The notes under the pieces: generated by a model
Told to the model about the DNA's origin: nothing
Seen by the model: the letters and a program-made list of their open reading frames with translations, nothing else
The model's database searches: none
DNA from: a virus
Taxonomy: Duplodnaviria > Heunggongvirae > Uroviricota > Caudoviricetes
DNA: 53,833 nucleotides
IMG/VR virus record: IMGVR_UViG_2740892427_000003
Strand: one strand, 5' to 3'
Shown: piece after piece, positions 11,324 through 12,876 of the stretch
How the letters are laid out: each line of letters starts with the position of its first letter
Position numbering within the stretch: position 1 is the first letter of the stretch
Position numbers and translations under genes: made by a program

Positions 11324-11350
11324 CATAAAAAAGGGGCGCAGACGCGCCCC
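11324..11350 (-). terminator. intrinsic terminator closing the porin transcription unit
   Basis: On the minus strand, stem ggggcgc/gcgcccc with loop gtct followed by a T-run, immediately upstream of the L start. Confidence 0.5.
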
Positions 11351-11523
11351 GAACAATAAAAGTCCAATTTAAAATAAAACCAATAAAGGTAATAACAGAA
11401 AGTTAAATCAGCACATGCCAGATGGCAATTGCTGATCGCAGTGACCAATGAAAACTGTGTTTTCATTGATACAGGCCGCCTGTAAGGGCAGACGGCCCGT
11501 ATTTATTAACTTATCAGCAATAA

Positions 11524-12678
11524 TCAGAACTGATAAGTCATACCCACAGCAACGATATTATCTGTCGCAACACCGGCTTTCCGGGTAAATTCACTTTCAT
11601 CAATCAGGTTAATTTTATAATCAACATAGGTGGACATATTCTTGTTAAAGTAATAAGTCGCACCGACATCAATATATTTAACCAGATCCTGATCGCCATG
11701 GTTCACACCACCAACCATAACATCCTGTCCGCGGGACTGAAGGTAGGCAAGGGACGGGCGCAGACCAAAATCAAACTGATACTGAACAACGGCTTCGATA
11801 TTCTGAGCTTTATCCGCAACACCTTGATCACCAAAGGTCGTCATATTCTGGGTTTCAGAATACACTGCTGCCAGATACAGGTTATTGGCATCATATTTAA
11901 GACCAGTTCCCCAGAATTCAGCATGTTTACCTTTTGCCACACTACCTGAGTCAACTGCTTTTTCTCCAACCTTTTTACCTGATGCAGGATCAAGAACATC
12001 TGCAGTACCATTCAACCCCTGAACCTGCTTATCAGTACGATCTGACTTGGTATACGCAGCGACAAAACCAAAACCATCAAACTCATAGCTGGCCGAGAAA
12101 CCATACCCGTCGCCATTAGCCTTCTGAAGGTCATCACGCTCATTTTTGCCCTGATACTGCGCCGCAAAATTCAGACCATCAACCAGTCCGAAGAAGTCTG
12201 TATTACGGTAAGTCAGGACACCGGAAGTTCGGGCCGTCATAAAGTTATCGGTCTGCGTCCAGCCATCACCACCAAACTCAGGCAGTACGTCAGTATATGA
12301 TCCGACATCGTAAGCAATACCATAGTTACGTCCGTAATCAATGGTACCAACATCTGCAAATCTCAGACCTGCAAATGCCAGACGGGTTTTATTTCCCGCG
12401 GAACCTTCAGATTCCGTTTTGTTACCAGAGAACTGGTATTCCCACTGACCAAATCCGGTCAGTTGATCATTAATCTGCGTTTCGCCTTTAAAGCCGAGAC
12501 GAGCATAAGTCTGGTCTCCGTCATTACCTTTATCATCCGAGAAGTAATGCAGAGCGGTTGCACGCCCGTAAAGATCCAGTTTATTACCATCTTTATTATA
12601 AACTTCTGCTGCCTGCGCCCCCGCAGCAAACATCACTGCCACTGCTACAGCAGAAAGTGCCACTGTCATTTTTTTCAT
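11524..12678 (-). CDS. OmpC/OmpF/NmpC-family general porin
   Basis: 384 aa; signal peptide then [15 protein letters not shown], and C-terminal [17 protein letters not shown]...VAVGMTYQF with terminal Phe. AT-rich upstream region 12679-12876. Confidence 0.9.
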
Positions 12679-12876
12679 GATTTAATCCTTATTTAAACTG
12701 AACTATTCATGCATTTAGATGTCATGAACAAAAATTAAAATATTTTAATACAAATTCTTAGTTCAATTTATATTATGTAACAAAATGTAAATACAAGATC
12801 GATTTCGCACTTTCTGACAAGACAGATTAAAAATAATTAACAACTAAACAATAAAGAGTGATTTATAGGATAATTC

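Follow-up and report, generated by a model that had tools for sequence, protein, structure and literature searches.

A prophage porin cassette between tail genes M and L with a structured, IpeX-like 3′ untranslated region complementary to ompC and ompF

Porin genes carried by phages can be followed by long, structured 3′ untranslated regions (UTRs). In the lambdoid phage PA-2 (lc) and the cryptic prophage DLP12 (nmpC), the ipeX element is located on the sense strand between the stop codon of the phage porin gene and a Rho-independent terminator (K-12 and PA-2). Reviews (PMC12197685 among them) attribute a decrease in OmpC and OmpF to IpeX or to the lc transcript, and IpeX has been described as Hfq-independent. 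A phage porin with a structured 3′ UTR is likewise encoded by the nmpC cassette of P7 and of P1-like phage-plasmids (e.g., phi456), which adjoins ssb in the P1-type genome and has a CRP-like site upstream. The chromosomal RNAs MicF and MicC, which repress ompF and ompC, respectively, direct a single-stranded seed against the Shine-Dalgarno (SD) or start region of the porin mRNA, followed by a U-rich Rho-independent terminator. Lambdoid morons (Juhala/Hendrix; HK97 gp15, lambda lom/bor) are autonomous, AT-rich inserts with a terminator of their own. Here, a porin cassette with a long 3′ UTR is described from a 53,833-nt stretch of viral DNA (IMG/VR virus record IMGVR_UViG_2740892427_000003, Caudoviricetes; hereafter, the window, to which all coordinates refer). 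The cassette is inserted between the tail genes M and L, and the cassette and its neighbours are all encoded on the minus strand.

Both the window cassette and the lc-ipeX and nmpC-ipeX cassettes encode a phage-borne porin of the OmpD/NmpC type (68% amino acid identity), and downstream of the gene both have a long 3′ UTR that comprises three hairpins, an AU-rich single-stranded stretch, and a GGGGCG...CGCCCC terminator. The two have the blocks AACyUUCUGUUAU and CCUUUAUU in common, as well as a homologous 5′-UTR motif (CAnTGACnTC...AGTTCA) that is also present in the P7 nmpC leader, and the core of each is antisense to the SD region of ompC. On the other hand, lc-ipeX occupies the opposite strand in the interval from Q to the lysis genes, whereas the window cassette occupies the M-L tail junction on the strand of the late operon. 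The lc (PA-2) and P7 nmpC cassettes have CRP sites upstream, whereas the window has an OmpR-type box. The hairpin sequences of the window and ipeX are unalignable, the window has an extra spacer of approximately 30 nt before the terminator, and experimental support exists for ipeX, whereas the window element is known from its sequence. These features suggest that the window 3′ UTR is most aptly classed as a new family within the lc-ipeX kind; its genomic site is new, and its type of promoter differs. Our preferred reading, to which we assign a probability of about 0.68, is that the cassette is a lysogenic-conversion moron that swaps porins, the phage porin replacing OmpC and OmpF by means of antisense pairing from its own 3′ UTR.

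The part of the 3′ UTR on which this reading depends is a core that is antisense to the translation-initiation region (TIR) of host porin genes. It pairs with positions -32 to -5 of the K-12 ompC mRNA (target 5′-AAUAAAGG-CAU-AUAACAGAGGGUUAA, with the AUG 4 nt later), forming 15 contiguous base pairs over the GAGGG SD sequence and 8 more, and it is also complementary to the ompF ribosome-binding site (RBS). The pairing was evaluated with duplexes of the core only (duplexfold), with a pairing-score scan against a background of real sequences, and with cofolding; RNAduplex on full-length UTRs was dropped because it returned long, meaningless duplexes. The duplex energies of the window core with ompC and ompF were -28.3 and -28.9 kcal/mol, respectively, compared with -26.7 and -18.8 kcal/mol for K-12 IpeX, -31.0 kcal/mol for P7 with ompF, and -27.4 kcal/mol for the genuine MicF-ompF duplex. 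K-12 IpeX itself forms 15 contiguous pairs (one of them G-U) over the SD region of ompC and 9 more, with AACCUUCUGUUAUAU opposite ompC AUAUAACAGAGGGUU. The seed of P7 pairs best with ompF (22 nearly continuous pairs), not with ompC.

The complementarity of the core to the ompC/ompF TIR is statistically exceptional. Against a background of 9,245 bins of 100 nt from real phage and enterobacterial DNA, the pairing score of the window core with ompC was 48, whereas the background maximum was 37; scores of 35 with ompF (background fraction 8e-4), 35 for IpeX with ompC (2e-4), 40 for P7 with ompF (0 of the 9,245 bins), and 31 for MicF with ompF (1e-3) were obtained in the same scan. The score of the window core with the TIR of its own porin gene was not significant (19; background fraction 0.33). 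The observed duplex energy was reached by 1 of 1,000 dinucleotide shuffles for the window and by 4 of 1,000 for IpeX. When intramolecular structure was allowed in cofolding, the ddG was -16.3 kcal/mol, compared with -9.9 ± 2.1 kcal/mol for core-shuffled controls, only 1 in 100 of which reached it. Furthermore, when the best site of each phage core was sought on either strand of 76 enterobacterial porin loci (6 kb), it coincided with the porin TIR in 15–35 loci, where 0.6 would be expected (binomial p 1e-16 to 1e-52); for MicF, this was the case in 8 loci. Of 5,371 E. coli genomes, 5,359 carry the ompC target with an identity of at least 99%. As a result of three changes in the seed, subtypes A2 and A3 of the cassette pair in a different register, over the start codon of ompC and the RBS of ompF, with the scores remaining at 31–39.

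The phage cores resemble the MicF seed UUUAUUUAUUACC, with comparable duplex strengths. However, MicF and MicC are transcribed from independent genes divergent from the porin gene, whereas the window element is a co-directional porin 3′ UTR in which the seed follows three hairpins, and the Rfam models of MicF and MicC did not match it. As judged from the predicted duplexes, the window element is MicF-like in its working and not a member of MicF/MicC; homology to MicF and convergence are indistinguishable because the same target constrains both.

The 3′ UTR folds into three tandem hairpins (H1 to H3), an unpaired AU-rich stretch of approximately 55 nt, and a terminator whose stem begins 173 nt after the stop codon. 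The fold of the 202-nt 3′ region had an energy of -79.6 kcal/mol, compared with -45.3 ± 4.3 kcal/mol for dinucleotide shuffles (z = -7.9; 0 of 200 as good). The original prediction had noted a single perfect 10-bp hairpin; this hairpin (H2) is indeed present, as one of three in tandem rather than alone. Covariation was tested on nine distinct natural variants with 43 pairs, giving 365 pair cells, 99.2% of which were standard pairs, whereas controls with slid partners reached a pairing of only 35–46%. Eight pairs had changed on both sides (a number reached in 1 of 500 shuffles), in 20 cells (0 of 500). All cells of H2 were paired across the variants, all 7 terminator pairs were invariant in the variants of this type, and a 13-nt deletion in subtypes A2 and A3 takes out the tip of H3, with the base stem untouched. 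This compensatory evolution of the hairpins indicates selection on the RNA. An RNase E site may be located in the unpaired, AU-rich segment that separates the stop codon from H1. The terminator that had been predicted immediately before L was recovered, with its stem GGGGCGC/GCGCCCC at 11333-11350, its U-tract at 11327-11332, and the A of the L start codon 12 nt past the U-tract. Two small open reading frames (ORFs) in the region (11287-11466 minus, 59 aa; 11448-11588 plus, 46 aa) were rejected as not conserved, because their ATGs in the palindromic arms of H2 are lost in subtypes A2 and A3, the reading frame is disrupted by the 13-nt indel in H3, and the substitutions compensate one another within pairs.

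Long structured 3′ UTRs of this kind are restricted to phage-borne porin genes. A total of 441 porin relatives were found in IMG/VR, and the 80 loci that were fetched yielded 23 distinct 3′ UTRs, which comprise the M-L type with three subtypes (family A), the lc/nmpC type of the Q-lysis region that includes ipeX and has an almost invariant core in more than 50 loci (family B), and the P7/phi456 type (family C). In each of the 79 chromosomal porin genes examined (OmpD, OmpC, OmpF, and PhoE types), a plain terminator directly adjoins the stop codon, and the core motif is absent. When IMG/VR was scanned for exact matches to the motif, the results were 31 copies of the family A core, all attached to a porin gene (one cut by the contig end), and 33 unrelated matches, which are antisense to regions with an RBS and ATG in AT-rich phage genes.

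An alternative that needs no regulation in trans is that the 3′ UTR serves only as a tail that stabilises and terminates the mRNA, its hairpins acting as 3′-exonuclease barriers and insulating the tail operon, with a complementarity that is incidental to AU-richness. The stable hairpins and strong terminator are consistent with such a tail, as are the matches of the core motif to the antisense RBS of unrelated AT-rich phage genes and the high duplex energies of AU-rich sequences in general (shuffle means of -21 to -24 kcal/mol). However, the excess of the ompC score over the background maximum and the rarity of shuffles with an equal duplex energy argue against an incidental origin, and the anti-TIR property recurs in three families of 3′ UTR with diverged hairpins. 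The A2 and A3 seeds, moreover, have changed register and kept their scores with both ompC and ompF. A bare terminator suffices for the chromosomal porin genes, and IpeX has a published effect in trans. This alternative is the least improbable of those considered here, and we nevertheless regard it as unlikely.

The original prediction had proposed that the 3′ region may encode an RNA analogous to IpeX. This proposal is supported by the position, the architecture, the intermediate character of P7, and a covariance model, and is not supported by direct sequence similarity. When the proposed alignment to ipeX was run, blastn found nothing at the site and nhmmer gave E = 0.67; a profile of the family matched ipeX at the terminator only (E = 0.002), and a forced MAFFT alignment of the window and ipeX gave only hints of common blocks. 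The 3′ UTRs of PA-2/K-12 ipeX and P7 have the same structural plan as the window (z = -9.4 and -6.5, respectively). In P7, the 5′ half is ipeX-like rather than window-like (hairpins 1 and 2), with an H2 that differs from that of ipeX by compensatory changes (AGGTGGCAcccTCAtGCCACCT vs. AAGTGGCTccctcAAGCCACTT), whereas the 3′ half, with core, spacer, and terminator, aligns well with the window (ATTTAACTTCATGTTAT..TTACCTTT..CTCTATTGTTGGGGCGC). A covariance model (R1) was built from the window-type sequences and P7, from H3 to the terminator, and searched over 564 kb. The training sequences scored 138.9 bits (window) and 76.8 bits (P7), and the top matches outside the training set were all copies of ipeX (K-12, PA-2, and lambdoid isolates), at 36–37 bits and an E-value of approximately 1e-3 under a rough calibration. 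These were followed by micF upstream of chromosomal ompC (20–29 bits, E 0.04–1; annotated K-12 micF, 19 bits), and then by matches to the beginnings of ompD-type porin genes, on their antisense strand.

An Rfam search of the window region gave only SNORD123, C0299 (opposite strand), WT1-AS, and sR44, at chance level (all E ≥ 3). The ipeX loci of K-12 DLP12 (L002) and PA-2 (L011) had no match in Rfam release 15 either; since the defined ipeX locus itself gives no match, Rfam has no IpeX family and is uninformative for kinship with ipeX. The P7 nmpC 3′ UTR (L012, 1812-1998) had a sub-threshold match to GcvB (30.5 bits vs. a gathering score of 42; E = 0.0015), which probably reflects U-rich or terminator features that the two have in common. 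In a single lc-type locus of IMG/VR (L066), the 3′ UTR of the porin gene is replaced by unrelated sequence 13 nt past the stop codon, and an ipeX-like element lies approximately 780 bp further downstream (covariance model match at 4362-4458), an arrangement that suggests an insertion into the UTR.

A second alternative is that the element represses host porins without base pairing, e.g., by hairpins that titrate an RNA-binding protein or a factor of the envelope-stress or OmpR pathway, in which case the antisense core would be irrelevant. The reported Hfq independence of IpeX is in line with this, and the three conserved and covarying hairpins could be protein-binding sites. Between the families, however, it is the anti-TIR core that is conserved and not the sequence of the hairpins, and K-12 IpeX pairs with the SD region of ompC. 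Hfq is said to be dispensable for the effect on ompC, not for that on ompF, in the abstract of the 2006 study by Castillo-Keller and colleagues; the strong predicted duplex of IpeX with ompC and the weak one with ompF would fit this pattern. The same abstract reportedly states that complementarity was not found, and the untranslated region of ompC, within which the predicted pairing of K-12 IpeX falls, is reported there to be required. The IpeX RNA is 167 nt long. Repression without pairing appears quite unlikely, a little more so than a mere tail.

Action in cis is less probable still. Here, the AU-rich block 2 (approximately 11352-11381) would pair with the 5′ UTR of its own mRNA, bringing the two ends into contact, and would control the stability or translation of that mRNA. 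A helix of 12–13 bp between block 2 and the leader sequence AGUUCAGUUUAAA (12692-12704) is predicted in subtypes A1 to A3, with apparent compensatory differences between A1 and A2. However, non-cognate combinations of block and leader score equally or higher (e.g., 43 vs. 28), and the pairing is poor in P7, which has block 2, and in the L030 subtype; K-12 ipeX lacks block 2. We consider control in cis very unlikely as an explanation of the element; it is compatible with pairing in trans and does not exclude it. Least probable of all is that the core is a functionless fossil that derives, in inverted form, from the start of a porin gene or from a gene resembling micF and was captured together with the porin: it is indeed the reverse complement of a porin TIR, and the covariance model also finds micF genes and antisense porin starts, but the core is conserved (nearly invariant in family B) and kept in three genomic contexts, and the surrounding hairpins evolve by compensatory change.

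Under the antisense porin-swap reading, the cassette would be transcribed in the lysogen from its own, OmpR-dependent promoter and transcription would stop at its own terminator, and the tail genes would therefore remain silent, as we propose. The transcript would encode a replacement general porin with diverged surface loops, and in its 198-nt 3′ UTR, a MicF-like antisense seed would be flanked by three protective hairpins on one side and by a U-rich terminator module of the Hfq type on the other. The UTR may act while still part of the mRNA or, once processed, as an IpeX-like RNA of approximately 200 nt. Pairing of the seed with the TIR of host ompC, and less strongly with that of ompF, would block ribosome binding, so that the host porins fall and the phage porin fills their place. 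The likely benefit would be the exclusion of phages, colicins, and antibodies that use OmpC or OmpF, with no loss of permeability. During lytic growth, Q-modified polymerase would pass the terminator, and L would be translated from the SD sequence supplied by the cassette. Of this scheme, we infer OmpR control, processing, the use of Hfq, the repression of OmpC and OmpF, and the exclusion phenotype.

Several points weigh against the antisense porin swap. The literature states that IpeX acts without base pairing (PMC3617542; PMC12197685), a statement that the complementarity of K-12 IpeX to the SD region of ompC contradicts. The direct similarity between the window and ipeX was not significant by blastn, nhmmer, or the family profile, so that homology rests on one intermediate (P7) and the rough E-value of the covariance model. 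Rich in A and U, the core is antisense to a strong RBS of generic type (AAGGUAAUAAnAUGAAA), and the complementarity is partly generic because the 33 unrelated antisense gene starts also match. A long-loop duplex with the TIR of the cassette itself is not much weaker than those with the host targets (-26.3 kcal/mol), and a simple sigma-70 scan of the porin strand returned no consensus promoter. The rationale of superinfection exclusion would be drawn by analogy with PA-2. The C-terminus of J in the window is approximately 90% identical to that of long-tailed Stx phages.

More broadly, it is reasonably likely that IpeX-class RNAs in general are MicF/MicC-like antisense regulators that reside in the 3′ UTRs of phage porin genes and travel with the porin as a portable porin-swap module. 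This module would occur in at least three contexts, namely the Q-lysis region of lambdoid phages, the lambdoid M-L tail junction, and the site adjoining ssb in P1/P7, with seeds retuned among the ompC SD sequence, the ompC start codon, and the ompF RBS, and with promoters rewired between CRP and OmpR. The window would then represent a third family that has not been described before, and its predicted duplex with ompC is the strongest. Many antibiotics enter the cell mainly through porins, which are also receptors of phages and colicins and major surface antigens; if the reading is correct, replacement of OmpC and OmpF would change these properties in the Shiga toxin-producing E. coli (STEC) and commensal strains that carry the cassette, the gene of which is called simply "porin OmpC" by genome pipelines. 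IpeX has been described for two decades as non-base-pairing; the complementarity, which is conserved in three diverged families and absent from chromosomal porin genes, makes this question directly accessible to experiment. The cassette also illustrates clearly how a putative 3′-UTR regulator can travel together with the gene that it accompanies, and how a moron inserted between tail genes must provide a new RBS for the downstream gene.

The porin of the cassette belongs, as originally predicted, to the OmpC/NmpC family. It matched the OmpC subfamily of NCBIfam with 507.7 bits (cut-off 484), with the PhoE and OmpF equivalogs close behind but below their own cut-offs, and it matched solved structures of OmpC, OmpK36, PhoE, and OmpF in the PDB over residues 24-384 (E 1e-131 to 1e-110), the best being OmpC (3upg, E = 2.7e-131). 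A signal peptide is present, and the protein ends in ...TYQF, with an aromatic last residue. Its identity was 66–69% to the phage Lc/NmpC porins and to chromosomal OmpD-type porins, and 55–61% to the other chromosomal porins that were retrieved. These comparisons indicate a complete general porin of the 16-stranded OmpC/OmpF/PhoE type that, by sequence, is nearest to the OmpD/NmpC/Lc group. The ORF was intact in every cassette variant examined (364–387 aa). When one genome per species was scanned, no close relative was found outside E. coli; the best matches were the chromosomal OmpD-type porins with 66–69% identity, all of which have short 3′ UTRs.

By its insertion and anatomy, the cassette is a moron: it adds DNA at a junction where M and L are otherwise contiguous, and it has a deviant composition, its own upstream region, and its own terminator. 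When a chimeric query of the end of M and the start of L was used, a single unbroken match of 599 bp was found in 1,198 of 5,426 complete E. coli genomes, and at this empty site the stop codon of M and the start codon of L overlap as TGATG. One genome with an identical copy of the cassette also carries a second, cassette-free prophage, whose M and L are 98.5% identical. Alignment of the window with the empty site (locus L177) showed divergence from 12886 downstream, and the last three sense codons of M are replaced relative to cassette-free relatives. The cassette itself was found in 126 of the 5,426 genomes (full length in 109), flanked in every case by a "phage tail protein" gene (M) and a "minor tail protein L" gene. 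The unit is 100% identical in several STEC chromosomes, and variants with approximately 95, 91, 86, and 79% identity to the window unit also occur. The GC content is 0.32–0.49 within the cassette and 0.55–0.64 in M, L, H, and K, with a minimum of 0.32 in the 300-nt interval 12600-12899. These observations bear out the predicted self-contained porin unit and its AT-rich upstream region, and all elements were located on the minus strand where they had first been placed. All cassette variants have kept GGGCGGA or GGGTGGA before L; an RBS supplied in this way by the cassette would replace the lost translational coupling between M and L. Like the lambdoid morons, the cassette is presumably expressed from the prophage; unlike those listed above, its cargo is a full-size general porin coupled to a putative regulatory 3′ UTR. 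No deposited phage genome in INPHARED has a porin at the M-L position, and no paper on a porin between M and L was found in a literature search. To our knowledge, no moron site has previously been reported at the M-L junction.

The upstream region aligns with the K-12 ompC promoter around the C1 box of OmpR (TTTACATTTTGAAACAT). The box-like sequence in the window, TTTACATTTTGTTACAT, which we take to be an OmpR site from the published ompC and ompF boxes, has a single match in the 53.8-kb window, where 0 were expected (100 shuffles). The same motif is present at -113 in the cassette subtypes L035 and L044, and the near variants TTTACATTTTGTTACGT and TTTACATTCTCTTACAT, which the search pattern missed, occur at about the same place in L029 and L030/L005. 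These matches suggest that the cassette promoter would be under OmpR control, as is that of ompC. The L030/L005 subtype (approximately 86% nucleotide identity) has an upstream region and leader unlike those of the other M-L cassettes, yet a TTTACATTCTCTTACATTTTG motif is retained at a comparable distance from its ATG. This pattern suggests that promoter regions are swapped within the cassette family. The coordinates of the cassette and its neighbours are given in Table 1.

Table 1. Coordinates of the porin cassette, its elements, and the adjacent tail genes in the window.
Feature	Positions	Strand	Basis
Tape-measure gene H	13211-16453	minus	ORF list
Tail gene M (113 aa)	12877-13218	minus	ORF list; "phage tail protein" in identical genomic copy
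Inserted cassette (moron), 1,572 bp	11315-12886	minus	everything missing where M and L abut
AT-rich upstream region and porin 5′ UTR, 198 bp	12679-12876	minus	sequence; alignment to K-12 ompC promoter
OmpR-box-like sequence TTTACATTTTGTTACAT, -113 from ATG	12775-12791	minus	alignment to ompC C1 box TTTACATTTTGAAACAT
Porin gene, 384-aa precursor (ATG 12676-12678; stop TGA 11524-11526)	11524-12678	minus	ORF list
Non-coding stretch, 209 nt	between porin ORF and L	minus	sequence
Porin 3′ UTR, 198 nt	11326-11523	minus	sequence and terminator scan
Hairpin H1, 14 bp, loop CCCUUA	11469-11502	minus	minimum free energy (MFE) fold; double compensatory changes in 3 of 14 pairs
Hairpin H2, perfect 10 bp, CAATGAAAAC/GTTTTCATTG	11446-11468	minus	MFE fold; double compensatory changes in 4 of 10 pairs
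Hairpin H3, 8-bp base and 4-bp tip	11406-11437	minus	MFE fold; one compensatory pair
Anti-TIR core UUAACUUUCUGUUAU-UA-CCUUUAUU	11382-11406	minus	duplexfold, pairing score, cofold, shuffles
AU-rich spacer (block 2) GGUUUUAUUUUAAAUUGGACUUUUAUUGUUC, U-rich end before terminator	11351-11381	minus	alignments
Intrinsic terminator, 7 G-C pairs, loop GUCU, U6	11326-11350	minus	terminator scan; fold
SD-like GGGCGGA and ATG of L	11312-11324	minus	sequence
Tail gene L (232 aa; start codon 11312-11314)	10616-11314	minus	TIGR01600 phage_tail_L, 378 bits

An identical copy of the cassette is present in NZ_CP027586.1, where it belongs to a lambdoid prophage adjoining ompW (compared over 4562000-4625000), with a 36-bp offset from the window in the region of J, so that the window must derive from a closely related but non-identical strain. 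No stx gene was found in the stretch of this prophage that was examined; a type I restriction-modification subunit M gene and nanS-p occupy the usual place of stx, and an IS1 is located in the early region. Past J, this genome carries Hok/Gef and YadA-like genes, followed by an S6-family (SPATE) autotransporter gene outside the window.

Elsewhere in the window, a 677-bp stretch (8607-9283) with no ORF longer than 73 aa separates the tail genes I (9284-9964, minus) and J (5133-8606, minus), and a terminator-like hairpin with a GC-rich stem of 10 bp (8657-8680, minus) lies just upstream of J; this stretch may represent another junction of tail genes with a non-coding insert. A sok antitoxin RNA (42351-42525, minus; 117.7 bits) was identified, and a Hok/Gef gene is annotated nearby in the matching genome. 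The window also contains three tRNA genes (36601-36847, minus), the equivalents of which are annotated as Ile, Arg, and Arg in the matching genome. Two copies of the Rfam family STnc100 (34778-34990 and 35270-35476, minus; 164.6 and 134.9 bits, respectively) lie downstream of the tRNA cluster in the direction of the late operon, where Stx phages carry stx.

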